Part shown: one piece after another, positions 3,455-59,100 of the stretch | How positions within the stretch are numbered: position 1 is the first letter of the stretch | Layout of the letters: each line of letters begins with the position of its first letter | Source: a virus | Length of the DNA: 64,000 nt | Strand: one strand, 5' to 3' | IMG/VR virus record: IMGVR_UViG_3300037882_003154 | Coordinates: 57,374-121,373 of that record | Made by a program: the position numbers and the translations under genes | The notes under the pieces: generated by a model | Databases searched by the model: none | What the model saw: the letters and a program-made list of their open reading frames with translations, nothing else | Told to the model about the DNA's origin: nothing

Positions 3455-4054
3455 TTAAAGCCTCTCGTTGCCTGTTACTGTAACCTTCCACATACTATCT
3501 GGAAGCAACTCGTAGTTATCACCGAACCAATCATAAACCGCCTGTTCAACTCCAACATGACCACGGTTTATCTCTCTGTCTCTGTATAGTTGTTTTGCAC
3601 TATATTTGTTTGATGCTCCACGATGATCGCAGTCGTGCCCACACAATATTCCACCAATCTTTACTTTCTCTAAACATCTTTCTATATCGCCCATAACATG
3701 AAAATAATTATGATCAGCATCTACAAATGCTATATCTAGACTTCTATTAGGTATTTTTACTATTTGATCTACACTATTTCCCACCAAGATAGTCATGTAT
3801 TCAAGATAGTCCTTTACATAATCTTTAAACTCTTGTAAAAATTTTTGCTCATAGAATTCGTATTCCGGTGGATCATAGACGCCATTACGATATGTATTGC
3901 TTTTAAACCAGTCAACAGCCCACAGATGCCCCCCCATAGCAACCACATGTGGCATATATTCCCTGGTTGAATATCCTTCTCTAACACCAATTTCAGCCAC
4001 CTTAATACCACCTATATTTAGCGACTTGACCAAATTAACAAAAGAACTAACCAT
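3455..4054 (-). CDS. Class I SAM-dependent methyltransferase (Methyltransf_24-like)
   Basis: Motif I AEIGVREGYS, DIAFVDADHNY, GGILCGHD. Start moved to MVSSF (GGAGG upstream). Confidence 0.8.
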   Translation of the reverse strand: MVSSFVNLVKSLNIGGIKVAEIGVREGYSTREYMPHVVAMGGHLWAVDWFKSNTYRNGVYDPPEYEFYEQKFLQEFKDYVKDYLEYMTILVGNSVDQIVKIPNRSLDIAFVDADHNYFHVMGDIERCLEKVKIGGILCGHDCDHRGASNKYSAKQLYRDREINRGHVGVEQAVYDWFGDNYELLPDSMWKVTVTGNERL

Positions 4055-5057
4055 TCTTTCCTCCTTTAACATGTATTGTATACCAATCTACTACATCTGC
4101 AACCATTTTTTCAATATTTCTCTTAGGCGCCCATCCCAATAGTGTTTTAGCACGAGTATTATCAACAAATCTATTTTTTAGTGTTGATGGTTTATTTTTA
4201 TTAAGCGACATCCTTGGTGTTATAAACGAACCATTTTCATCTATTTTTGCTCCCTCGTGTTGTAAAGCATAACCAAGAATATCGATGGCGCTAAACGACT
4301 TTCCATATGCAATATTTATGGGCTCAAAATATGGAATCTTTTCTACCATAAGAAATACTGCATCAATGAAATCGTCTACATGCAAAAAGTCTCTAGTGTC
4401 TTTACCGTCTCCCCATACCTCAATTGGATCATCACCATCAACTACCTTTTTTACTAATGCTGGTAATATATGCGATTTGGATGGATCAAAACAATCTCTC
4501 GGACCCACTATATTACTAGGTCTTGGTACAATACATGTTATATTGTTGTCAATATATTTGGCAAAGAGTTCGCATAATTTTTCACTATATCTTTTCATAT
4601 GACCCACACCGAAATAAACTTCTGCCGGGTCTTCAAAATGGAATTCTTCTTCTTTTACCGGATGGTCATAGGGCGGATATCCGGTAGTGCTAGATAGATA
4701 AACAAACGCTTTGACTTGTGCTTTATGGGCGGCAGCCAAGAGGTTGTAATTCATCTTGATATTTGGACCAACAAGATTAAGGATGTTTTCAGCCTGTGCT
4801 CCAGCACCATAGCTCTTGCCAGCACAATGGAATACATAGTCTATTCCTCTACAGATGTAATCTACATCATAGTTTACTTCAAGATTTGCTCTCATTAAAG
4901 AATATGGCTTCAAATCCCCATCATATTCTTTGGGTATGGTATTATTAAACACTGCATAAACTCTAGCATTTTCTTTAATAAGTCTTTGCACGAAGTTAGA
5001 ACCGATCATACCAGCAGAGCCAGTAACCAAGCATTTTGTGTTTTTGAAAATACTCAT
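4047..5057 (-). CDS. Extended SDR NDP-sugar epimerase/reductase (GDP-fucose synthase-like)
   Basis: VTGSAGMIGS Rossmann motif, RPSNIVGPRD, SHILPALVKK, WGDGKDTRDFLHVDD. Confidence 0.8.
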   Translation of the reverse strand: MSIFKNTKCLVTGSAGMIGSNFVQRLIKENARVYAVFNNTIPKEYDGDLKPYSLMRANLEVNYDVDYICRGIDYVFHCAGKSYGAGAQAENILNLVGPNIKMNYNLLAAAHKAQVKAFVYLSSTTGYPPYDHPVKEEEFHFEDPAEVYFGVGHMKRYSEKLCELFAKYIDNNITCIVPRPSNIVGPRDCFDPSKSHILPALVKKVVDGDDPIEVWGDGKDTRDFLHVDDFIDAVFLMVEKIPYFEPINIAYGKSFSAIDILGYALQHEGAKIDENGSFITPRMSLNKNKPSTLKNRFVDNTRAKTLLGWAPKRNIEKMVADVVDWYTIHVKGGKNG

Positions 5058-6010
5058 TATTGTTCTTGCCTCAAGTGGTCTAAAAGAAACATAATTGACT
5101 CATCTAAGGTATAGTTTGGATACCATCCTGTTTGGTTAATAAATTTAGTGCAATCGGGTATCTGATAAGATATATCTACTGGTCGTAATAGTGACTTATC
5201 TTCTTCGGTAATAATATTGGCTTTAGTATATGTTTTTAGTAGCTCTAGAAATTCACCAATAGATATAGTATTATCCCCACCTATATTATATATCTGACCA
5301 ACATGACATTTTTGTGATGCCACCCAGTAAGAGGACATCGCATCACGAACATCTATCAGTGTTCTTACAGGCTTAAGATTGCCATGCTTCAAAACCCTTG
5401 CATTGCTCCGCTCAATATCTATAATTTGCTTAGCAAAAGCGGTAGCGAATATGTCTTTTCTACGGGGGTTTATATAGCTAAACATCCTTGTTGTTATAAC
5501 TTTGAAACCATAAGAGTGAAAATAAGCTAAGCCGATTTTTTCTTGTGTTAGTTTAGATACAGCATATATGTTCTGGGGCTCTACCGGATGGGTCTCTGAT
5601 ATTGGGCACTCATCTTTGGAAGCAGCCCTGTATACCTCTGAGGTCATACAGTTCTGTATTATTGGATCTATACCAACCATCCTAATTGCTTCAAATAGGT
5701 TGATTGTATTATTTGTGTTATTTTGCAATACGGCTATAGGATTAGAAAAACATACCTTAACATTCGCATGAGCTGCGAGATGAAAAACATAGTCTGGTTT
5801 TACATCTTTTATTGTGTGATATGTAGCGCTTAGATCATTAAGATCGCACTCATGTAATACCACATCGTCTTTAATCTCTCTTAAATTGTGTGCCGTTGCT
5901 GTACTATGCCAACGACTCACACCATGTACCTCTACATTGGTGTGTGACAGTAGATATTCGGCTAAATAAGAAGCCCCCGATCCAGTAATTCCTGTTATTA
6001 AGGCTTTCAT
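5057..6010 (-). CDS. gmd: GDP-mannose 4,6-dehydratase (Gmd/Rmd family)
   Basis: ALITGITGSGASYLAEYLL, VFHLAAHANV, TSEVY, YAVSK, GNLKPVRTLIDVRD. Confidence 0.75.
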   Translation of the reverse strand: MKALITGITGSGASYLAEYLLSHTNVEVHGVSRWHSTATAHNLREIKDDVVLHECDLNDLSATYHTIKDVKPDYVFHLAAHANVKVCFSNPIAVLQNNTNNTINLFEAIRMVGIDPIIQNCMTSEVYRAASKDECPISETHPVEPQNIYAVSKLTQEKIGLAYFHSYGFKVITTRMFSYINPRRKDIFATAFAKQIIDIERSNARVLKHGNLKPVRTLIDVRDAMSSYWVASQKCHVGQIYNIGGDNTISIGEFLELLKTYTKANIITEEDKSLLRPVDISYQIPDCTKFINQTGWYPNYTLDESIMFLLDHLRQEQ

Positions 6011-41797: not shown

Positions 41798-42074
41798 CTG
41801 TTTGTGGTTCCGGCTCACCATATGATGCAAAACCATCGGTTTGTACCAAATTGTCATCCTTGATCCCCTTCTTCTTCTTGTCTTTGCCTTGTGATGGCTG
41901 CTTTTTCTTAGCAAAAGACGGTCTCATTCTCTGATACCATGACCATCCTTCAAATGCATTTTTGAAGGACTTTTCTATTCTTCTAATGCTACCATCTTTG
42001 GTGGTTTGATTTAAGACAATCTCTAACCAACATTCATTATTATATTGTTCTATTGGCATTTTACTCCTCTTCAA
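41760..42074 (-). CDS. Hypothetical protein
   Basis: ORF in operon context. Confidence 0.5.
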   Translation of the reverse strand: MKRSKMPIEQYNNECWLEIVLNQTTKDGSIRRIEKSFKNAFEGWSWYQRMRPSFAKKKQPSQGKDKKKKGIKDDNLVQTDGFASYGEPEPQTDDTNVPAATEKI

Positions 42075-42387
42075 ATCCGTTGCCAGCTATGATACCATTC
42101 CATTCGCTGCTCTCATATTTATCGACAGCCATTTCTAAATCCTCATATAAGTCCACAAGATGGGTGTCATTATAAGACACTAATTTATCACTGATATTAT
42201 GCAATATACTGCGGATTACATCCTGGTATTCAGAGTCTTTAAGTAGTTTATCGACTTTGTGTTGTAGAGCACTCACTTTAGATCTCCTTATTTTTGTAGG
42301 CATACTAATCGCAAACTTTTTTTGACAAATCGCTTCAAGAAGAGAGGCAAAGCCATATACAAGGGTATCATTCGATGATATTTTCAT
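42061..42387 (-). CDS. Hypothetical protein
   Basis: ORF with ATGA overlap. Confidence 0.5.
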   Translation of the reverse strand: MKISSNDTLVYGFASLLEAICQKKFAISMPTKIRRSKVSALQHKVDKLLKDSEYQDVIRSILHNISDKLVSYNDTHLVDLYEDLEMAVDKYESSEWNGIIAGNGFEEE

Positions 42388-42896
42388 AGCCGTATAGTTA
42401 TACCAGGAATATCATGTTTCTGTATAGCGAATGATTGTTCATATATGTTTGTTGACATAAATAATTCCGCAATCTTCTCTCTATTTTCCTTATCATATTC
42501 TACTTTTGGCTTTGACCATTCACAATAATGAATGTTCTTAATACCACATTGCCACATTGCCTTTATACATTCACTACATGAATATCCACTAACATATGCT
42601 ATGGCGTCCTTTAATGGGGCAGTAGTATTATATATTGCATTGGCTTCGGCATGGACCATATATGGGTATTTTTCTGGTCCATAGTTTGGTAGATTACTAT
42701 CATCGACACCAGCAGGAAATCCGTTGTATCCCACAGATATTATTTTATGATCTCGAACGAAAACACACCCACATTTAGTTCGTGCATCTGGAGAACGTAC
42801 ACTTGCTAGAATTGCAAATGACAGAAAATACTCATCCCAAGATGGTATATCAATATTACGATGAATACTCTCGATTGATTGGGATGGTTGTTGCAT
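42384..42896 (-). CDS. dCMP deaminase
   Basis: WDEYFL, RSPD..TKCG, GYNG, HAEANAI, CSEC. Confidence 0.9.
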   Translation of the reverse strand: MQQPSQSIESIHRNIDIPSWDEYFLSFAILASVRSPDARTKCGCVFVRDHKIISVGYNGFPAGVDDSNLPNYGPEKYPYMVHAEANAIYNTTAPLKDAIAYVSGYSCSECIKAMWQCGIKNIHYCEWSKPKVEYDKENREKIAELFMSTNIYEQSFAIQKHDIPGITIRL

Positions 42897-43011
42897 TTTT
42901 AGTTTCGGTTTCGATGATATTAGAACGTTTTTGCTGTCTCATCTTCCTGTTCTGACGACTAGCAAATATCTTCTTTTTATTACGATTAACCCCACGGAAA
43001 GTCCTACCCAT
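42856..43011 (-). CDS. 51-aa Arg/Lys-rich peptide (not in ORF track)
   Basis: Manual translation MGRTFRGVNRNKKKIFASRQNRKMRQQKRSNIIETETKNATTIPINREYSS; ATG directly follows the upstream stop. Confidence 0.5.
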   Translation of the reverse strand: MGRTFRGVNRNKKKIFASRQNRKMRQQKRSNIIETETKNATTIPINREYSS

Positions 43012-43233
43012 CTATGCTGACTTTTCCATGATATTAGTGAACATCTTCTTGTAGTTTCTTATAACACAATCACAATAGTCTAATTGTGTTTGTGGTTCAC
43101 CATATTTAGAATAATCAATAGGGGCTGGTTGAATCATTCTATAGCCCCGCCCATGACATTTTCTACATGTAGCTTTGGCATATGCATTGGCTTTGCCTAG
43201 CATATCATTAATTTGACTATTTTCCACTTGCAT
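43012..43233 (-). CDS. Small Cys-rich (Zn-finger-like) protein
   Basis: CRKC.G.G...C.C. Confidence 0.55.
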   Translation of the reverse strand: MQVENSQINDMLGKANAYAKATCRKCHGRGYRMIQPAPIDYSKYGEPQTQLDYCDCVIRNYKKMFTNIMEKSA

Positions 43234-43598
43234 TAGCCAGCATCATCCAATAGTGATTGGATTTCCTCTGGTGTGCTATTAGCTGCAACACTCAATACAG
43301 CATTCACAAGCCCACTTGCATTTTTAGCAAAAGCCCTTGGGGACATATCGCCATTATCTACAAGACTTCTGCGTAGATTAAGCCTCACACCTATTCTTTG
43401 GATTAGTGTTGGATTAGCAGCATCGGCTGCAACAGTAGCCGAGTCAGCCTTGCACTTTTGTAGGGCTTGGATCAAAGGAACTAGAGCCTCTGCAATTAAG
43501 ATAATAATTGAGGGATCAAATGCGAATTCTTTATCGCTTGGATGGTTGCTTTGTAGTTTAGCAACAACTTTTTCAGCAAATGCTTGTACTTGGTTCAT
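43233..43598 (-). CDS. Hypothetical amphipathic/membrane-associated protein
   Basis: FDPSIIILIAEALVPLIQALQKC hydrophobic helix. Confidence 0.55.
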   Translation of the reverse strand: MNQVQAFAEKVVAKLQSNHPSDKEFAFDPSIIILIAEALVPLIQALQKCKADSATVAADAANPTLIQRIGVRLNLRRSLVDNGDMSPRAFAKNASGLVNAVLSVAANSTPEEIQSLLDDAG

Positions 43599-43621
43599 TG
43601 TGTATTGACTTTCTTTGTATA

Positions 43622-44014
43622 TTAGTGGTGTGAAACTCTTAGGGTACGAATATTGCGTTGTTTTACCACCACTCTTTGTACATTTCGTACCCGAACACTT
43701 TGGAAGAGATTCTGTACAGAATTTCGTAGATTTTGTAGCAATGGTTCTCGTACTACAACCTTTTGGACTACTTGTCTTTGAACATGTCGAACTTCTTGAA
43801 CTACAAACTGTGGAGCCAAAGCTAGCTTACGCACAACATTAAATCGCACAGTGTTGAAATGTGGTGATAATACCACTCTCTGCACAACAAAATTGTCATG
43901 TGATACACATAGGTTTCTTACGCGTTCAATGCGTAGATTATCGCAAGATTTTACCACAGACCCAAAGGATAAAAATGAGGCGACCAAGGCACCAATCAAA
44001 AAACGTCTAATCAT
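43622..44014 (-). CDS. Secreted low-complexity V/R/Q-rich protein
   Basis: Signal-peptide-like N-terminus; repeated VQRVV/VQKVV/VRVR tracts. Confidence 0.65.
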   Translation of the reverse strand: MIRRFLIGALVASFLSFGSVVKSCDNLRIERVRNLCVSHDNFVVQRVVLSPHFNTVRFNVVRKLALAPQFVVQEVRHVQRQVVQKVVVREPLLQNLRNSVQNLFQSVRVRNVQRVVVKQRNIRTLRVSHH

Positions 44015-44050
44015 AGCATTCCCCTTTTCTCTTATAGTTACTTTGTATGC

Positions 44051-44677
44051 TTACTTTAGCTTAGCCCAATCTTTCAATATAATTACATCTTCATCTGACA
44101 AAGGATCCCCACCCTTTGGCATTTTTTGTTCAAAAGCCTGAATAAAAATATCAAACTTTTGTTCTCGATTCAGTTGAGACAGCTTGTTATCTTTAATGAT
44201 CTCAAGTCCACCATTTATTGTATCCCCCGAATGGCATTTTGCACAGTTCTTTTTTAATATTTCAAGGGATTTTAATTTTAATTTATCTGTTGGTGTTTCT
44301 GGGCTGGCTGGCTCTACTGGTTCAGTATCATCTGGTGATGGATTATCTACTGGTGGTGGAGCATCTGGTTTTGTTGGCAAGGATAGTTTAGAAATCAGTT
44401 TGGCGACTATTTTCTCTGATAATTTTTCTAAATCATCGTCATCAATAGATAGTTCTGCTGAATCTTTAACCCTATAATAATATTCGAGCCCAAGGTCTGT
44501 TACTGGTACCTCAAATATAAAATCATTGTGTGATACAAATCGTCTATCAAAATTCCTACTAATGAACCTAACATTGCTCCGAGCTATGTTGAGCCCAATG
44601 TCACACTGATTGTCACCAGCATTAGCAAAGTTACAAGCGAACGATAAGATTGTGGCTAAGAATATTTTTTTAAACAT
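44051..44677 (-). CDS. Secreted monoheme c-type cytochrome (Planctomycete cytochrome C-like domain)
   Basis: Signal peptide ..FANA, Pro-rich linker, LKKNCAKCH (44231..44245), distal KMPK.G.PLSDED...LKDW. Confidence 0.8.
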   Translation of the reverse strand: MFKKIFLATILSFACNFANAGDNQCDIGLNIARSNVRFISRNFDRRFVSHNDFIFEVPVTDLGLEYYYRVKDSAELSIDDDDLEKLSEKIVAKLISKLSLPTKPDAPPPVDNPSPDDTEPVEPASPETPTDKLKLKSLEILKKNCAKCHSGDTINGGLEIIKDNKLSQLNREQKFDIFIQAFEQKMPKGGDPLSDEDVIILKDWAKLK

Positions 44678-44690
44678 TGAATGCCCCCTG

Positions 44691-46340
44691 CTACTTGTTT
44701 ATCCAATCAAAGTCTTGTTCTTTAATTGTAATCTTGAGACCATTGGCTACAAAAACATAGAGACCCTCAGAATTCTTATTTGGGCTCTCTAAGGTAATTA
44801 TATCACCGATTTGTAGTTCTGCAATTACACTTTCTTGTTTTGTAATCTTAAGATGTTTTTTAATCCTAACTGATAGTGGATTGACATCTTGTGTTTCTGT
44901 CTTGGATGTTGGTGGAGCCCTTTCTATTCTATGTATTAGCAACATAGCTTGAGCAAATATGCCACTATCTAGATCTTCCCACACATCTCTATTTATTGAT
45001 TTTTCTGTTTTTACTAGAGCCCCAAGTCTACCACTAATAGTTGGTGTACATTTGGTCTTAAAATCATCAACAGACAGCCCACATTCATATGCGGCATGAG
45101 AGATAGATAGAGATCTTTCATACCACTTAAGGATCTCTTGGTATAGTTTGGCATTCTCTAAACCACTTAGCCCATTAATAGACTGTACAGCCCCATTAAA
45201 TATCTCTTTATCAGCCGCAAACAACTTGCCCATAGGGCTCAGATAGAACCTTTCTACAGCAATTTGATATTCTTTGTTATATGTTAACAACTCTACACCA
45301 GATTTTAAATGTTCGCTTAGAGCATTGATGGGAATATTGATAGCGTCTGCATGGCATATAACACAAGATCTAGCGGTTCTAACCCGTATATCTTTAGTGT
45401 CCGTTCTATCCCAAACCACCGTTGGATCACCAAATTCGACACGTTTATTCTTACCATCATATAGAAAATACACCTGGAGACCTAGTTTGTTGGTAGTAAA
45501 CGTCTCACCTGCATCTCTGTCATTACGAGATAAGCCGGTTGGGTCTAGATTTTCGATATAGTCTTGGGCTCCTTCCGATGTTTTAACATCTGAAGTTTCG
45601 TAATAATAACCGAGCTCTGTTCTTGTTCTTGATATTTGTCTATTATTCCTAGACACCCCAGACGACCCTTTGTCTACTAATATCCCTTTTTCTATAGCCA
45701 GTCCCTCTATTTTCTTAACATCTACACCCCAGGCAGCCCTAAACTCTTCTAGTGTTTTTGGCACACCGGTTTTAGCATATAGTAATTCATAGTATAGTGG
45801 TGGCAATTCCCTATCAACTTGTTTTGTTACATCACTAGTATGAATGATAAACCAATCGGCTCTTACTATTGCATTTCCAGCCAGAGCCCTTAGTAATTCA
45901 TAATTTTGATATTTTATCCAAGGCTCTCTAAAATATGGCTCATGTATACTGACTTTTTCCCAGGCTTCTGGGGTCCAGCCGTAATCTCGTATATCAATCC
46001 ACCAGAGATCATTGTCGCCCTCTACTTTTCTAGCCTTTTGTACAATATTCTCATAGCTTAAACTATGCATCCAAAAGTTAAGAGTTTTAATTATACCATC
46101 TTTAACTTTTATATTTTCTTGTCTATTAATATTTTCATTAGTGATAACAATAGTATCTTCTACTGGAATATTGTACACAGAAAAAAATCTGATGTAAGGT
46201 CGCAAATCTGTCGATATAGTAACTAGAAATTCACTTGCAGCCTCAACTTCTGATTGTGGGCTGTTTATTTTGGCTTCTTGCCCAATAGAAATTCCAGTGA
46301 GGCAAAAAACAATTGCCAAACTAAAGATGAGCCTAAACAC
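44691..46340 (-). CDS. Secreted 549-aa protein with single CXXCH heme-c motif
   Basis: Signal peptide; RADWFI..LYYELL, SGVSRNNR, GGE-like AGE, GLQVYFL, SCVICH (45351..45365); possible C-terminal SH3-like region. Confidence 0.7.
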   Translation of the reverse strand: MFRLIFSLAIVFCLTGISIGQEAKINSPQSEVEAASEFLVTISTDLRPYIRFFSVYNIPVEDTIVITNENINRQENIKVKDGIIKTLNFWMHSLSYENIVQKARKVEGDNDLWWIDIRDYGWTPEAWEKVSIHEPYFREPWIKYQNYELLRALAGNAIVRADWFIIHTSDVTKQVDRELPPLYYELLYAKTGVPKTLEEFRAAWGVDVKKIEGLAIEKGILVDKGSSGVSRNNRQISRTRTELGYYYETSDVKTSEGAQDYIENLDPTGLSRNDRDAGETFTTNKLGLQVYFLYDGKNKRVEFGDPTVVWDRTDTKDIRVRTARSCVICHADAINIPINALSEHLKSGVELLTYNKEYQIAVERFYLSPMGKLFAADKEIFNGAVQSINGLSGLENAKLYQEILKWYERSLSISHAAYECGLSVDDFKTKCTPTISGRLGALVKTEKSINRDVWEDLDSGIFAQAMLLIHRIERAPPTSKTETQDVNPLSVRIKKHLKITKQESVIAELQIGDIITLESPNKNSEGLYVFVANGLKITIKEQDFDWINK

Positions 46341-46353
46341 ATTGAGCCTTTTT

Positions 46354-47265
46354 CTAGATTTTCACTACCCTATATCCAGGGATTGTAATAGATTCCACTG
46401 AACCGACTATCTTTATTATAGTCTCATGGGATGGATTTGGTGTGGGGTTTGGGGTTGGTGGGGTTGGAGTTGGGGTTGGGGTTGGTGGCGGATTGATCGG
46501 TGGCACATTTTGTGGTTGACCATATAATCTCTGGAGCCTTGGTATATCATCATTTTCCTGTGGCTTATCTACATTGGGATTATAGTATGGTGCTAGAAGT
46601 GCCGATTGTATTTTGGAATGGTTTAATCCAAGATTATGACCAACCTCATGGCAATGAACGTTCCTGAGCAATATGCCCCTCTTGTTCTTGTTATCAATCC
46701 ATGTCTCAGCCAAATCTAATGTTAGCGTTAGTTTGCCAGTAAAGCTAGGTGAATTGGGCAAATATGCATAAGCTAATACGTTCCCAGGAGTACCAAGCTC
46801 TTCACTAGCAGCCCTACTAGTTAAGATCACAAGATTTGCATTATCAGAAAAAACCTCTCTAAATTTAATGCCACAAACAGCAGATATAGAGTCATAAGAC
46901 CGTCTATATATGTCCCTCTGTTCTTGTTTTGTTAATCCATCAACCCATTCAGCAATATAATAGCTCAGTTCTTTAAGAGCCCATTTATTAACAGATGTAG
47001 CAGGTGTATTAGGACCTCTGCGCCAGAAAAACTCAGGAACATCTGGGTGGGCGCATCTAGGATAGTTCATAGCCCTAAATGTCTTGAGACCGACACCATT
47101 TTCAACTATATTGGCATTATATTGAAATTCTTTAATAGCCAAAGACACTTCGTCATCCGTGGCATCATCTGGTAATCTATAGTAGTGTTTCAGATATGAT
47201 AGAACATATAATAGATTGTCTTTGGCTTTGGTTAGATCAGCCTCTAAAAAGTGTTCTAGTCCCAC
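46354..47265 (-). CDS. Matrixin (M10/MMP-like) metalloprotease with propeptide
   Basis: AIKEFQ..M.YPRCAHPD propeptide, KW..L.Y, LAYAYLP, HEVGHNLGLNH, ALLAP, DDI..Q.LYG, Pro/Thr tail. Confidence 0.88.
   Translation of the reverse strand: MGLEHFLEADLTKAKDNLLYVLSYLKHYYRLPDDATDDEVSLAIKEFQYNANIVENGVGLKTFRAMNYPRCAHPDVPEFFWRRGPNTPATSVNKWALKELSYYIAEWVDGLTKQEQRDIYRRSYDSISAVCGIKFREVFSDNANLVILTSRAASEELGTPGNVLAYAYLPNSPSFTGKLTLTLDLAETWIDNKNKRGILLRNVHCHEVGHNLGLNHSKIQSALLAPYYNPNVDKPQENDDIPRLQRLYGQPQNVPPINPPPTPTPTPTPPTPNPTPNPSHETIIKIVGSVESITIPGYRVVKI
46431..46500. repeat. GGGGTT-type low-complexity repeat encoding a Pro/Thr linker
   Basis: tggggtttggggttggtggggttggagttggggttggggttgg encodes PPPTPTPTPTPPTPNPTPNP on the minus strand. 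Confidence 0.8.
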
Positions 47266-47274
47266 AATTACCGC

Positions 47275-47538
47275 CTACGGATTAGAAAACAGCTGCTTAA
47301 AAAACATAAACATCAGTGTTATAAATGGGGCTATTAGACCAGCTAAAAATCCCACAACACCAGCCTTAACCTTCAAGCCGTTTATATCTAAGGCTATCGG
47401 TTGTAATTTTGCTTCTAGGTCTCTGAATCTAGTGTCTAGCTTCACGTCTAGATTCGAGAATCTTTCCGCCAGATCTTCAAGTGCATTCAGGACGAACTTT
47501 TTGTTCTCAACCCAATCGCCGTTTTCAATATTTGGCAT
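47275..47538 (-). CDS. Holin-like small protein (coiled coil + C-terminal TM helix)
   Basis: Heptad region followed by AGVVGFLAGLIAPFITLMFMFF. Confidence 0.45.
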   Translation of the reverse strand: MPNIENGDWVENKKFVLNALEDLAERFSNLDVKLDTRFRDLEAKLQPIALDINGLKVKAGVVGFLAGLIAPFITLMFMFFKQLFSNP

Positions 47539-47560
47539 TATTTAGCCCCCAAATTAGTGA

Positions 47561-48211
47561 CTAAGCCAAAGTACGAGCCGGATAATCCTTAAGTGTTGGT
47601 ATCAATGCCGGTTCTTTGATTACAAATTCGCCAGGGACCCCAATGGTCGGTGAAGCAGCATCATCAGGACCCACACCATTCCCAATACCTATGGCATTGG
47701 CAGTAAAATAGTTCTTGTTACTATATGTCAAAACAAGTCTTGAACTGTGTCTACCGGCACTATTTTGTAATGAGAATGTATAAAGATGGCTTGTTCGGAT
47801 CACAACCACCTTATTAACTCTACGACGATTGCCAAAATCAGCAGCACCACTGTTCATAAGTGTATTGGGCAATCCCGCTAGGGTGTCGGACTGTCGTATA
47901 ATAACATATTTGCCCTTGGTCATAGAGGCAAAAACGCCGCTATTAAGCACCTTAAATGTTGAAGAACGAGTTGTGGTTACGGTAGCCCCATCGCCAGAAA
48001 GTAGATCTGCAATTTGATCCGCAGTCATCGGATTGGTAACTTTACTACCATAAAATCCATGAACAGCAAGATTGGTATAACTAACATGTTTTGTAATTGG
48101 GCTGTTTGAGGCGATATTGCCAGCAAAAGCCATAGCCCCACCATTATTACGAAATGCATTTGCTGAGATTACTTTACTAATACCAGTTCTGCTGTTTGAA
48201 ACAATAGCCAT
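47561..48211 (-). CDS. Hypothetical protein, possibly virion-associated
   Basis: Small-residue-rich composition, AASPT.GVPGEF..DYPART tail; preceded by the GGTGTATTT motif. Confidence 0.5.
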   Translation of the reverse strand: MAIVSNSRTGISKVISANAFRNNGGAMAFAGNIASNSPITKHVSYTNLAVHGFYGSKVTNPMTADQIADLLSGDGATVTTTRSSTFKVLNSGVFASMTKGKYVIIRQSDTLAGLPNTLMNSGAADFGNRRRVNKVVVIRTSHLYTFSLQNSAGRHSSRLVLTYSNKNYFTANAIGIGNGVGPDDAASPTIGVPGEFVIKEPALIPTLKDYPARTLA

Positions 48212-48256
48212 ATTGTATACCTCTTTACATACTTTTGCGTGATTACTCTATTCAAT

Positions 48257-48265
48257 AAATACACC
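48257..48265 (-). promoter_or_regulatory. Recurrent GGTGTATTT motif, copy upstream of 48211
   Basis: Identical 9-mer also at 48937..48945 (minus) and 56120..56128 (plus), each in an intergenic gap upstream of a gene. Confidence 0.5.
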
Positions 48266-48275
48266 ACCGGGGCTT

Positions 48276-48920
48276 TTACAAGATATTTTCTGCTTGTTTA
48301 GAGTAGTTGAATCTAGCTCCATAAATACCGGCGCTACGTAGCAATGGAAGGTGTCTCTTATTTAAAAGTTGGCTATAACAAATTGTGTTAATGCCTATTT
48401 TTTGAACAGCCTCACATGCTATTATATTCTCATTTGGGTCATCTGCAAACACACCCGAAGAACTAATGATGGTTGTTATACCGGTCTTTTGCCTAATTAA
48501 TGAGCAGATGGCAACAAAGTCTTGAATGCTGAATAGTTTATAGTCTACAATGAATCTGATCTCTATTTTGTTTGTATGGGCTAGTGTGCTACAGGTATTT
48601 AGATCATTAAAAAAATTTTTCTTATCATTATTTGTTAGATAAGTGTGGTTTATCACAACATCAACAATATCACAGTTTTGTTTAGTAGACTCTAAAATAG
48701 CATGTAATTTTAAAGGAATGCTATCATTTCCATATGGATAGTTAATTAGACTACCAAATTTAGTAAGAGTTTCAACTTCTTTTAAATATGGTCGGGCTTT
48801 AAAGGCATATCCAACTGGTACACAAAAAGAATCAAAAGAATGCGATGTGGCTAAGTGTGCAGCCTCAACAATCTCTTTGTAGTTAATGTGGTGTGAAACA
48901 CAGCAAATTTCTAAAATCAT
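48276..48920 (-). CDS. Deoxyribose-phosphate aldolase (DeoC)-fold protein lacking catalytic lysines
   Basis: FDSFCV, INYPYG, VDVVIN, IRFIVD match DeoC; the KTSTG motif appears as ISSSG. Confidence 0.7.
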   Translation of the reverse strand: MILEICCVSHHINYKEIVEAAHLATSHSFDSFCVPVGYAFKARPYLKEVETLTKFGSLINYPYGNDSIPLKLHAILESTKQNCDIVDVVINHTYLTNNDKKNFFNDLNTCSTLAHTNKIEIRFIVDYKLFSIQDFVAICSLIRQKTGITTIISSSGVFADDPNENIIACEAVQKIGINTICYSQLLNKRHLPLLRSAGIYGARFNYSKQAENIL

Positions 48921-48936
48921 AGTGTACCTCTAAAAG

Positions 48937-48945
48937 AAATACACC
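48937..48945 (-). promoter_or_regulatory. GGTGTATTT motif upstream of the DeoC-like gene
   Basis: Lies about 17 nt upstream of the ATG, before the AGAGGT RBS. Confidence 0.45.
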
Positions 48946-48946
48946 C

Positions 48947-49519
48947 CTAGTTGGTGTCTTGTGTTGTGTCAATATGCTTGATATCTTTTTCTAGTCTATA
49001 GTCCCAGTAACCATCTACAACACCATATTTTATAGCCTCTTTGCTAGTCAACCACCAGCCCTTATTAATTCTGCCCAAAAAGTCTTGTTTTTTCTTGGTT
49101 GTATGACATCCACAGGCTTTGCAAACTAGAGAATTAATTTCATCAGATCTTTTTTCTAGGTGCTCGCTCATTATTTTTACATTGCCAGCACGATCTTCAT
49201 TAGTGGCATAAGACATCGGATGTACCATAATAGTTGAGTTTCTAGTACAATATCTATGACCATGACTGCCCAACACTAATATATCAGCAGCCCCAGAACA
49301 AGCCAAAGAATAACAAATGGTATGAACGGTTATACCTATGGATTGTAGCCCTAGCATTTCATCTATAATAGCACAAGCGGCATCAAAGCTACCACCATCT
49401 GAACATATGTAAATATATATGTCCTCGACGCCAATGTCAATAAGCCTACGAATCTTCCTGATTACCTTTAAAGACAATCTGACACTTATATTATGAAATA
49501 GATATATGCGTGGATCCAT
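48947..49519 (-). CDS. clpP: ClpP-family protease
   Basis: IYICSDGGS, LACSGAA (Ser), IMVH (His), EAIKYGVVD; catalytic Asp position appears as Gly. Confidence 0.82.
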   Translation of the reverse strand: MDPRIYLFHNISVRLSLKVIRKIRRLIDIGVEDIYIYICSDGGSFDAACAIIDEMLGLQSIGITVHTICYSLACSGAADILVLGSHGHRYCTRNSTIMVHPMSYATNEDRAGNVKIMSEHLEKRSDEINSLVCKACGCHTTKKKQDFLGRINKGWWLTSKEAIKYGVVDGYWDYRLEKDIKHIDTTQDTN

Positions 49520-49538
49520 AGGACCTTCAAAAACAGAA

Positions 49539-50228
49539 CTAGTCTAGGTAGCTGGTAAGAGATCCCCCTACATTTTGTTGTGATTCTTTTAATACTTCCA
49601 TATAATGCTGAAATTCTGGTGTGTCTTCTTCTGATACAACCACCTTTTTTTTACCATTGGGCAATATGTATTCAGCCCAATACTTAGATTTTATGGTTAT
49701 TGGTTGGTTTTCTGATACAATACTCGAAGCATAAATCTCTTCTTCGATCTTTGTGCTCTCAAAAAATTTATTAATATCTTCTCGTATCTTTCTGGTTGGG
49801 TCAAATGTAGAATCGGGATTTTTGCTATCTTCGTCATGGTCTGGTGATGACAGAAATGCTTTGCCAAAACCAATCAGAAATCTATATCTAGTTAATATTC
49901 TTAGGATTTCTACACCAGTAAATCTATTTAGGGCATTTGTGATATCGGCATTGAGATTAAAATTAGTGTGACCTATCCAAATTTGAAATGACTTGCCTAT
50001 GTCTGTTTTGGGATTAAATGGAATAGGCGAGCCATGTGCAACCATCATCTTGGGCTCTACATCTGGGTCTTCTATGTCGTATGATTGATTAATTAATTGT
50101 AAGTTACCCTGATTATCTCTGAAAGTATCGCCCTCAGATAAAAATGACATCATAGCCTTAAAATCTTTAATGGGAAATACTGATGGGTTTTCCCACTTTT
50201 CCCAAATAATTCTGCGTTTTTCTGACAT
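49539..50228 (-). CDS. Hypothetical protein
   Basis: 229-aa ORF coupled to thyX. Confidence 0.6.
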   Translation of the reverse strand: MSEKRRIIWEKWENPSVFPIKDFKAMMSFLSEGDTFRDNQGNLQLINQSYDIEDPDVEPKMMVAHGSPIPFNPKTDIGKSFQIWIGHTNFNLNADITNALNRFTGVEILRILTRYRFLIGFGKAFLSSPDHDEDSKNPDSTFDPTRKIREDINKFFESTKIEEEIYASSIVSENQPITIKSKYWAEYILPNGKKKVVVSEEDTPEFQHYMEVLKESQQNVGGSLTSYLD

Positions 50229-56176: not shown

Positions 56177-59100
56177 ATGGCAGTAAAATTTTTCAAATCA
56201 GACCAAACCTTGGATACTGCGGCTAATGCTGTAATTACCACATCATTTTCCGATAAATCTACCCTAAGCTGGTCTTTTTTCTTAAAATCACTACAAGACG
56301 TGAGCGGGTCTACTAGTAATTTTCTTGGTGGTCAATTCTCTCGATTTTTCTTTATGAATCGACCAGTAACAACCTCACCAAATGTAAGGTTTACTGTTGT
56401 TACATCCGGTAGTAATACAAATAGTAGTAGTTTTTATGTTAGCACTGGGGTTTGGACCCATTTTGCTGCAACCCAAACACCAGGAGCCCAATACTTTTAT
56501 GTAAATGGGCAGTTATTAAATTCAGGAAGCAATCCCAATAAAATGGCGTTTGTTTCTGCTAGTACCGCTATTGGATTTAATAGACAGAGCGCTAGTAGTG
56601 GTCATATGATATTTGATGATTTCTCTATATTTTCGGGTATAGTGTTGTCGCAATCACAGGTTAAATCATTAAGAAACAGAACAATTTTGCCAACAGACGT
56701 GTCTTTGTCTGGCAATTTAATGTATTACTACACATTTGATAATCCAACCGGTGGCGTTATAGTTGCCGGAGCCCCCGGATTAACCAATGGTGGGTTCTTG
56801 GGATCTAATGCAGATCTTACTGCCGTGAGTGGTCAACCAGAATGGGTACAAGAGACCGGTGTGTTTGTGTTCAATCTTCAGCCAAGAAGTATTGAAACAG
56901 GGAAAAGCGGCAAAACTATTATAATGACATTTCAGGATATGAATGGAAATACCCAAGACATTAATAATGCAGATCCAACCCAAAGACCCACAATATCAAT
57001 CAATGGCGGTGGTAATATTACGTTACATAGTGGAATATTGCCGGGCGGTGGAGGAACCGTAGACCTTGTAGGTGGAGATGGCTATTATATTGTATATCCT
57101 GTCACGGGCGTAGTAATACAATCTAGTGATGTAGTCAAATTGAGTACAGCAGACGAAGGATATTGGTCACGCATTGATGGTCTTGGTGGTACAGACATTG
57201 TTGTTTCGGGCTCTGTAAATAATTATGTTGGAATGGAATTGTATAATTATGCTGGATTTAGTCCCACAGGATTAAAGATTGGTCTCAATTCTAATTTTTC
57301 TCTATATTACGAAGAGCCCCTATTCCTAGCTGATATTAGCAGGGGTGGATTTAGTGCATTAACAAAAACATCAAGACCTAGAAATATATCATCAACAAGC
57401 GACGACGCTCTTGTATTTCATACAATGGATAATGACTATTGGGGCAGAAGACCCCATATGCCTAGTGGCAATGCCACAATTACATATTATGGCAGTGGAA
57501 CATTTGATACTGCAACAATTACCTCTACCGGAAGCCCCAATTTTGCTGTTAGAAATATAAATCCGACAGGCTCAACCAATATATTCTTTAATACAGTGTC
57601 ACTTCCTATTAGTGGTGTTGAGATATATCCAAGTGGGCACTATGGTCAAATATTTAATCCAAGACTGATACAAATATTAAGAGACACCAAGTGCGCCGTA
57701 TATCGTACTATGAATGCCAACCAGATTAATTCTAGTAGAATTGCTAGTTTTTCTGAGTGGGGAGACTCAGCAGACCAGACACTGGGGTTTGGTTTTAGAA
57801 CACAGGTACCATTACTAAACATTACTTCCTTTGTTAATGTTAGCAGCCTATTGCAAGCCAATAGAATTTTCATGCACATATTCACTTCAGGTGATCATGG
57901 TCTAGTTAATGGTCAAGTAATATCAATGACAGGGGCTCTGACTATAGCTATAACAGGATCGGCTACCACAACCACAACATTTCCGACCACTCTGACACCG
58001 GTGGTTATGGTGACAAGCCCCAGTAGTTTATTAATTCAAAGATTTAAGTCAGATGGCGGTCATGTGTCTGGGGTACAATTTTTCAATAATACAGTATATT
58101 GTCAAAGAGAAAATATATATAGACCATCGTTATTTGCCAAATTGGTTAATGAAGTTCCTGGCTGTGATTTAATGTACTGTATGCCACACGCAATGGATGA
58201 AAGTGGCATGTCTCTGACAATGCATGAACTTTGCCAAAATATTAATACTGATAAAAAGATATATCTTGAGCTCAGTAATGAGACATGGAATCCTGGTGAC
58301 GCTTTCCAACAATATGGATATTTCTATAATGAGGGTCATTTAAATCCAATGTTTGTTACTCCATCTGCTTATGGCGTGACAGTAAATACTACATATATAC
58401 CATTAACAAGCGGTGTAACAGCGACAGGTCAAACCAGAGTTAATCTAGCATATGCCGAAAAAGCTGGAAGACTGCATACAATAGCCAGTGGTGTTATGGC
58501 ACAATATGGTTTGGCACATAATCTAGTAAGAGTGTTTGGCGGCAGAAACAATATCATTGAGGACGGAGAAAGGGTCCTAGAGTGGGCGAGGGCTAGAGGA
58601 TATCAGATAGATGCTATCGCAACAGCCCCATATTATGACAATAGAACCGACGATTTATATGCAAACAACTTCATAGGGCTGGACTCAGAACAGGTCCAAG
58701 ATACCCTATATGCAGCCCTTAAATTTGCGGGTAATAGGCATCAACAGATAGTGAATTATAGAAATCTGGCTAGGACTTTTGGGGCTCGTAATATCTGCTA
58801 TGAGGGTGGTACTGCTGGATTAGCTGTTGGTAGCTCAACTATAGTTAGTGGGATTTTTACCCTAACAGATGTTGTATCTATTAAAGCTGGCAGACACCCT
58901 AGGCTGGCTGATAGCTATTTTTATATGCTTAAGCACTTAGCTGAAAATGGCTATGATCTATTTTGTCATTATAATATAGGTCATTCACTGGCTACTGAAC
59001 CAGATAATCATTGGGGCATGTTCCAATATTATACACAGCCAATAGGAAGGGGCGATGGTAGTGATGGACTAAGAGATAGTAGAATAGATCTACAAGATAT

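Follow-up and report, generated by a model that had tools for sequence, protein, structure and literature searches.

The 64,000-nucleotide stretch of DNA analysed here (the window) spans positions 57,374 to 121,373 of the IMG/VR virus record IMGVR_UViG_3300037882_003154, a sequence of 133,464 bp with an estimated completeness of ~85%. On the minus strand of the window lies a gene that, as judged from its sequence and a structural model of its product, encodes an M10A-type matrixin zinc endopeptidase, predicted to be latent and made in the cytoplasm. This protein, hereafter the matrixin, has the layout of a matrix metalloprotease (MMP) zymogen: a three-helix prodomain, a cysteine switch, a flexible linker and a zinc-binding catalytic domain, followed by a second linker rich in Pro and Thr and a conserved C-terminal tail (Table 1). 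The local gene order is 216-amino-acid protein, 87-amino-acid protein, matrixin, f1 and f2, the last two encoding exported haem proteins. The matrixin gene belongs to a long minus-strand block that also has genes for ThyX, sigma factors, glycosyltransferases and a protease similar to ClpP. Some 60 kb separate the matrixin gene from the structural module (with terminase, tape measure and others), which occupies genome positions 728-41786 on the plus strand.

The original prediction for this locus, made from the letters of the DNA, had described a full MMP architecture with prodomain, switch and M10 domain, and our comparisons bear this out. The Pfam profile Peptidase_M10 was matched at E 1.8e-24 (86.8 bits against a cut-off of 24), with profile positions 1-159 of 159 covered by residues 94-249. 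The best sequence matches in the PDB, obtained with phmmer, were human proMMP-1 (1su3; E 4e-19, residues 18-263) and then proMMP-3 (1slm), and these alignments begin at residues 18-20, so that the propeptide and the PRCxxPD motif are included. An AlphaFold2 model built from 44 relatives reached a mean predicted local distance difference test score (pLDDT) of 87.6. Its top Foldseek matches in the PDB were proMMP-3, -10, -1 and -9, aligned over ~240 columns that include the prodomain, with target-normalized template modelling scores (TMt) of 0.77-0.84; proMMP-3 (1slm) came first (E 4e-19, TMt 0.83), and the structural comparison with proMMPs that had been proposed as a check thus supports the assignment. 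Because the best matches are proMMPs over this length, the model reproduces the zymogen arrangement, beyond the catalytic fold alone. The 303 residues contain no hemopexin domain, and a PHROGs search gave no match for the matrixin. The feature is real and well above chance, and its identity as a phage-borne leaderless M10A zymogen is confirmed.

Within the model, the prodomain is formed by helices at residues 11-28, 37-50 and 60-66 (pLDDT >90). Its own score against PG_binding_1 is 17.4-17.8 bits, below the cut-off of 23; PG_binding_1 is matched in 36 of 44 relatives (best E 3.4e-11) and PG_binding_3 in 11 of the 44, and the segment stands as the PG-binding-like propeptide it had been taken for. 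The genome has no other PG_binding-like element. The cysteine switch, likewise present as described, is close to invariant: among the 188 family representatives on which all residue counts given here are based, R70 is found in 182 and C71 in 183, the remainder being gaps. Residues 70-71 form a β-bridge in the model (pLDDT ~95). The prodomain probably sets PRCAHPD in the cleft, with Cys71 blocking the zinc of H206, H210 and H216. The stretch that connects the switch to the catalytic domain (residues 76-93) varies in length in the family alignment and is modelled with a mean pLDDT of 64 over residues 81-90; we infer that it serves as the activation site.

The catalytic residues H206, E207, H210 and H216 are present in all 188 relatives, and both catalytic-domain motifs of the original prediction, HEVGHNLGLNH and DDI..Q.LYG, are in place, the latter as DDIPRLQRLYG ending at G249. 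The Met-turn does carry the predicted substitution of Met by Leu, at residue 224, in a context that is otherwise retained (L223, P226 and Y228). Leu is not the family rule, since 174 relatives have Met at this position, 13 Leu and one Ile. We therefore regard Leu224, which is shared with the closest relative (P0002, 72-78% identical), as a recurrent minority state. Met-to-Leu mutants of MMP-2 are reportedly active, and Leu need not abolish function. The His, Asp, His and His ligands of the structural (second) zinc are absent across the family. In the alignment to MMP-1, two of the ligand positions fall in gaps and the others on Tyr166 and Leu/Thr; all 188 relatives have W, Y or F at position 166, and none has His. 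In the window's protein, LGTP takes the place of the FDGP motif of the calcium loop. The label 'eukaryote-style' given to the protein needs qualifying in view of the prodomain, which in most relatives is of the bacterial PG_binding_1 type, and of the missing structural zinc site.

The absence of a signal peptide, also part of the original prediction, does not depend on the choice of start codon. The stop-to-stop frame comprises 306 codons, with only three between the upstream stop and the GTG, so that a signal peptide further upstream is impossible. The GTG is preceded by a Shine-Dalgarno-like AGGCGG, and the N-terminal hydropathy maximum is 0.57, as against >2 in cellular matrixins. The same holds for the family as a whole, whose N-termini are not hydrophobic, whereas remoter cellular matrixins in the same hit list begin with signal-peptide-like segments.

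Downstream of the catalytic domain, the Pro/Thr-rich linker leads to a 22-residue tail that is modelled with higher pLDDT than the linker itself. The tail follows the consensus IxIxGxxxxIxIPGYRVxK in most relatives, with G297 kept in 151 of 188, and its motif occurs once in the 133-kb genome. It probably folds as a β-hairpin, a putative docking element.

Table 1 Features of the matrixin locus and of related loci. Positions are those of the window unless a locus is named; residues are those of the matrixin.
Feature	Position	Strand	Remarks
proMMP-type zymogen gene	46354-47265	-	303 amino acids; GTG start; stop 46354-46356
Three-helix prodomain, residues 11-66	47068-47235	-	resembles PG_binding_1 and the MMP propeptide
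Cysteine switch PRCAHPD, residues 69-75, Cys71	47041-47061	-	aligned to PRCGVPD of proMMP-1 and proMMP-3
Flexible linker between switch and catalytic domain, residues 76-93	46987-47040	-	with RR and K; possible bait region
M10 (matrixin) catalytic domain, residues 94-249	46519-46986	-	full Pfam profile; PDB and Foldseek support
Zinc-binding motif HEVGHNLGLNH, residues 206-216	46618-46650	-	HExxHxxGxxH
Met-turn region ALLAP, residues 222-226	46588-46602	-	Leu224 for Met; from sequence
Pro/Thr-rich linker, residues 250-281	46423-46518	-	pLDDT 51-72; family-wide
Conserved tail TIIKIVGSVESITIPGYRVVKI, residues 282-303	46357-46422	-	22 amino acids; pLDDT 78-85
f1, exported protein of 549 amino acids	44691-46340	-	single CxxCH haem motif; start 13 nt past the matrixin stop
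f2, exported small cytochrome c of 208 amino acids	44051-44677	-	Cytochrome_CBB3 at 1.2e-05
87-amino-acid protein	47275-47538	-	coiled coil and single C-terminal transmembrane segment; stop 9 nt before the matrixin start
216-amino-acid protein	47561-48211	-	ends with GVPGEFVIKEP
Trypsin-like serine protease of 307 amino acids	54064-54987	-	clear signal peptide MKSIVSIMFSLMLFVSTAIAQD
9-mer GGTGTATTT, copies	45466, 48257, 48937	-	
9-mer GGTGTATTT, copy	56120	+	
Short matrixins of related loci	L032 5959-7731; L036 1324-1995; L038 5728-6402; L039 3704-4345; L040 5896-6570; L043 5929-6630; L044 5310-5933		

The matrixin is not an isolated case. A word-indexed protein search recovered ~50 relatives of 270-320 amino acids, and an exhaustive search of clusters at 50% identity returned 121 clusters at E <1e-30 and 979 at E <1e-10; IMG/VR contributed 35 loci on contigs of up to 354 kb. 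At least 121 clusters at 50% identity thus form a large phage-borne family, carried on contigs of 125-354 kb. Searching 50,697 deposited phage records with tblastn gave no match to the matrixin, so no cultured relative provides context. Structural neighbours among viral proteins in BFVD are MMPs of insect viruses and a few uncharacterized entries from uncultured phages. Planctomycetota account for five of the eight matches in prokaryotic genomes (a metagenome-assembled genome (MAG) of Pirellulales, an uncultured planctomycete, Aeoliella, Pirellulaceae and Thermoguttaceae). The cysteine switch is kept in three of the eight, two of them full-length copies in MAG bins and one a shortened copy in the Pirellulales MAG, and these three cellular copies look phage-derived. 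DUF1501, a family typical of Planctomycetota, is also present in related loci. The phage probably infects Planctomycetota.

Gene neighbourhoods were compared across about 40 matrixin loci. The gene f1 adjoins the matrixin gene in 20 of them, followed in 14 by f2 (loci with f1/f2: L002, L003, L005, L007, L008, L011, L012, L015, L017, L023-L026, L029, L030, L033 and L034). The f1 proteins carry Sec-type signal peptides, as do those of f2, and their invariant residues include D251, D276, E279, C326, C329 and H330. A different setting is found in nine loci (L018, L019, L021, L022, L027, L037, L005, L023 and L026, at ~3600-6000 in each), in which the genes directly upstream encode gp25-like and Baseplate_J proteins (Pfam 3.2e-13; PHROG baseplate wedge 2.4e-22); f1 lies downstream in three of the nine. 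Some of these baseplate-linked loci have small transmembrane (TM) proteins and a 274-amino-acid protein, weakly papain-like (Peptidase_C1), after the matrixin.

A sister subfamily consists of short matrixins of 190-233 amino acids that have neither the helical prodomain nor the C-terminal tail. Most of them carry an RRxFL twin-arginine (Tat) signal and a mini Cys propeptide, with small TM proteins recurring at their flanks; in L032, a leaderless copy and an exported copy flank two small TM genes. The Tat signals on this subfamily point to the envelope as the site of action. Two further genes recur beside exported matrixins, namely a homologue of Peptidase_M19 (membrane dipeptidase; E 7.5e-50) after the matrixin (L036 2261-3652 and L038 6338-7657) and a DUF1501 protein with a Tat signal (E 3.7e-72) before it (L039 1799-3037 and L043 4083-5321). 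The window itself encodes an exported trypsin-like serine protease, which shares 42% identity with the product of a gene annotated as Trypsin_2 in L003. In L036, a comparable exported protease is found three genes away from the Tat-exported matrixin; in L009 and L042, the gene immediately after the matrixin encodes a Trypsin_2 protein of 590 amino acids. Several proteases thus seem to be exported into the envelope by these phages.

The original prediction had called the adjacent 87-amino-acid TM protein holin-like and suggested that it may release the matrixin, and neither proposal is supported. The protein has a single C-terminal TM segment and matched no Pfam or PHROG family up to E 1-10, and blastp against the first seven related contigs returned no homologue of it. 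In a protein atlas, it falls near small phage proteins, the nearest named cluster being XhlA-like (score 0.92), a cluster in which only 16% of the members carry the XhlA family; the XhlA likeness is a weak lead and not support for a holin. Holin-family searches with the small TM neighbours of the matrixin in six loci gave non-significant matches only (for example, phrog_297 at E 0.26-0.39). The gene may have another partner. In L036 and L038, a small protein with TM and coiled-coil segments sits between the matrixin and a probable relative of the 216-amino-acid protein, a protein that itself matched no family, and in L044 this pair of genes occurs at another place on the contig; kinship to the 216-amino-acid protein was judged by eye from a shared motif. 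This pairing suggests that the two genes form a conserved unit upstream of the matrixin, and the 87-amino-acid protein may thus belong with the 216-amino-acid protein and not with the matrixin.

The other part of the proposal, a latent proteolytic endolysin, bears on how these phages open their hosts. Six-frame searches with profile hidden Markov models covered the genome of the window and 16 further matrixin-carrying records of 125-354 kb, six of them ≥90% complete. The matrixin profile PF00413 had exactly one match in each of the 17 records. None of the 17 contained Phage_lysozyme (GH24), Amidase_2, SLT, Peptidase_M15_4, M15_3, GH19, GH108, NlpC/P60, Hydrolase_2 or Amidase_3; the absences of GH19 and GH108 are weaker, because control genomes also gave no match. 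GH25, searched in the window's own genome only, is absent from it as well. M23 was seen only below the cut-off, inside open reading frames (ORFs) of 390-1637 amino acids in 8 of the 17 records, the window's own genome not being among them. With ten muralytic families absent, the matrixin is the only recognizable envelope hydrolase with a wall-binding-like module. The 1785-amino-acid tape-measure protein (genome 27279-32636, plus strand; L057 7279-12633) was considered as a lysin and set aside: its residues 993-1098 match PHROG families named 'tail associated lysin' and 'endolysin', but Pfam finds only glycine-zipper segments in that stretch and no lysin domain is evident. A terminase-based search for relatives that lack the matrixin returned contigs of 4-19 kb only.

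On this basis, we tentatively predict that the matrixin is a latent, lysis-phase envelope protease of a large phage, a reading whose chances we put only slightly short of even. The endolysin proposal is partly supported in this form, without its holin, and fits the missing leader, the nearly invariant switch, the Tat-exported sister subfamily and the absent muralytic families; small TM proteins also flank the matrixin gene in several lineages. A proteinaceous wall or S-layer, the target first proposed, would be a reasonable candidate in view of the probable association with Planctomycetota. The leaderless zymogen would remain latent in the cytoplasm and, having no leader, would reach the periplasm only once the inner membrane is permeabilized as infection ends; its Tat-exported cousins would get there directly. 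Once there, the prodomain may attach to the wall. Two events could then free the switch: a cut in the flexible basic linker, for which the exported trypsin-like protease of the phage is a candidate, or modification of the thiol. The active enzyme would cut wall-associated or wall-tethering proteins, cleavage of peptide stems being less likely, and would thereby replace or complement a muralytic endolysin, while the Pro/Thr linker and C-terminal hairpin may dock it to a partner.

Several observations weigh against a role in lysis. The only catalytic domain of the protein is Peptidase_M10, which belongs to no known muralytic family, and to our knowledge no M10 enzyme cuts peptidoglycan. The most conserved neighbours of the matrixin are the two Sec-exported haem proteins and not lysis genes, nine loci place it directly 3' of the baseplate wedge genes, and the 87-amino-acid protein is neither conserved among the first seven related contigs nor matched by a holin family. 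Conserved positions of the enzyme itself are altered in the window's copy (M224L, D158G, W166Y and G72A). The sub-threshold M23-like segments, located in large virion-type ORFs of 8 of the 17 records, suggest that the hosts have ordinary peptidoglycan and that the phages concerned attack it by other means. In addition, with the window's own genome incomplete, a lysin of an unrecognized family could be present.

The same observations feed other explanations. The baseplate-linked loci would fit a protease of the virion, incorporated in or fixed to the baseplate or tail by way of its linker and C-terminal hairpin, that digests proteinaceous surface layers of the host at adsorption or entry; a cytoplasmically assembled virion component needs no leader, and the conserved tail, placed after a flexible linker, resembles a docking element. 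Yet in the genome of the window the gene is far from the structural module and on the other strand, where it shares an operon with genes for exported proteins; the baseplate-linked clade has a different tail sequence, and the Tat-exported sister subfamily cannot be packaged. Lysis genes, moreover, are commonly found beside tail genes, and we consider this explanation unlikely. The haem proteins offer a different partner: the matrixin could process or anchor the products of f1 and f2, or be redox-activated by them through Cys71, the three genes forming one envelope module. Their association persists down to ~35% matrixin identity, with intergenic spacers of ≤13 nt or overlapping genes, loci with a PGYR-type tail have f1 in 11 of 12 cases, and the switches of animal MMPs respond to oxidants. 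The compartments differ, however, Sec signal peptides on f1 and f2 being set against none on the matrixin; about half of the loci have the matrixin without f1, and shared ancestry confounds the association of f1 with a type of tail. A complex prediction that paired mature f1 (residues 22-549) and the full-length matrixin, an alignment being supplied for each, gave 0.00 in both runs and counts neither way. A partnership of this kind is, in our view, improbable. Its combination with the lysis reading, a redox-gated module in which an oxidant or nitrosating species sensed or generated by the periplasmic cytochromes would free the Cys71-zinc switch and so time proteolysis of a protein-rich Planctomycetota envelope in place of a classical holin-endolysin pair, is very unlikely.

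Two explanations place the substrate elsewhere. An enzyme set free at lysis might degrade matrix, holdfast or biofilm proteins, or the receptors on debris and neighbouring cells, and thus aid the dispersal of progeny, in analogy with the tissue-liquefying MMPs of insect viruses. A leaderless, soluble protein that stays latent until it is outside the cell would suit this task; the nearest viral structural neighbours are the insect-virus MMPs, and a phage-derived metzincin of Listeria alters wall properties and virion release (PMC8235301). Against dispersal, the Tat-exported subfamily acts in the periplasm before lysis, the PG_binding-like prodomain fits a wall-directed role, and the absence of a recognizable endolysin would be left unexplained; we grant this explanation a small share of the probability. 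The lack of an export signal, together with gene neighbours in the same block that include a ClpP-like gene and genes of nucleotide metabolism, would also be compatible with a host-takeover protease that is activated inside the cell, stays in the cytoplasm and cleaves, for example, host defence or regulatory factors. A zymogen with a switch, a PG_binding-like prodomain and a Tat-exported sister point outside the cytoplasm, no activator is evident within it, and a role in takeover is scarcely likely at all.

Compared with known systems, the matrixin combines features that otherwise occur apart. With the hemopexin-less units of vertebrate proMMPs (proMMP-7 and the pro-catalytic parts of MMP-1, -3, -9 and -10; 1su3, 1slm, 5ue3 and 9csx), it shares the three-helix prodomain, PRCxxPD and HExxHxxGxxH at 26-30% identity; it differs from them in having no signal peptide, none of the four structural-zinc ligands, Leu in the Met-turn and, in most relatives, a prodomain of the PG_binding_1 type. 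Where other MMPs have hemopexin, it carries the Pro/Thr linker and the 22-residue tail. Karilysin of Tannerella forsythia (2xs3/2xs4), a prokaryote-associated M10A-like enzyme, matches residues 93-251 at E 5.6e-14. Karilysin has a signal peptide, a propeptide of 14 residues and a C-terminal extension related to secretion (PMC4404884), whereas the phage matrixin lacks a leader and possesses a full prodomain bearing the cysteine switch. The MMPs of insect viruses (granulovirus, ascovirus, iridovirus, entomopoxvirus and nudivirus) are likewise virus-encoded matrixins, an example among the nearest BFVD neighbours being G0T5G2 of Wiseana iridescent virus (E 7e-18). These are proteins of eukaryotic viruses, act on host tissue and differ in size and domain set, and we draw no functional inference from them for the phage.

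Among phage enzymes, endolysins of the phiKZ gp144 type and LysB of mycobacteriophages are leaderless and place an N-terminal PG-binding-like domain before the catalytic domain, as the matrixin does. LysB-type enzymes (PMC13578437) show that a protein in which PG_binding_1 precedes a catalytic domain without muralytic activity can serve as a dedicated lysis factor. Unlike these PG_binding_1 lysins, the matrixin has a metzincin as its catalytic domain, and its N-terminal domain doubles as a putative blocking propeptide. Expression of Mtz, the phage-derived metzincin of Listeria, alters the wall and enhances phage-mediated lysis (PMC8235301). Mtz, compared here by description, is secreted, is paired with the TIMP-like lipoprotein Tim in a Gram-positive host and has no PG_binding/cysteine-switch prodomain.

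Complete proMMPs with a cysteine switch count as a hallmark of animals and plants. In the present case, the proMMP zymogen design characterizes a large family carried by phages, and a literature search found no description of cysteine-switch matrixins in phages. The kind of enzyme is known; new is its phage-borne, leaderless M10A zymogen form, with a PG_binding-type prodomain, a new tail and no structural zinc site. The family is relevant to the movement of MMP genes between domains of life, a transfer treated without phages in PMC12587646. Should the prediction of a lysis enzyme be true, the matrixin would represent a proteolytic substitute for muralytic endolysins and a way into the envelope of Planctomycetota, which is poorly understood; as an autoinhibited enzyme, it could also provide a useful scaffold.

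As for the expression of the locus, a promoter and terminator scan of window positions 42000-49600 gave no excess over shuffles. The 9-mer GGTGTATTT has four matches against 0.97 expected, a number reached in 2 of 100 shuffles. One copy (48257-48265) falls within the 64-bp gap that precedes the gene for the 216-amino-acid protein and could mark the start of the matrixin transcription unit.

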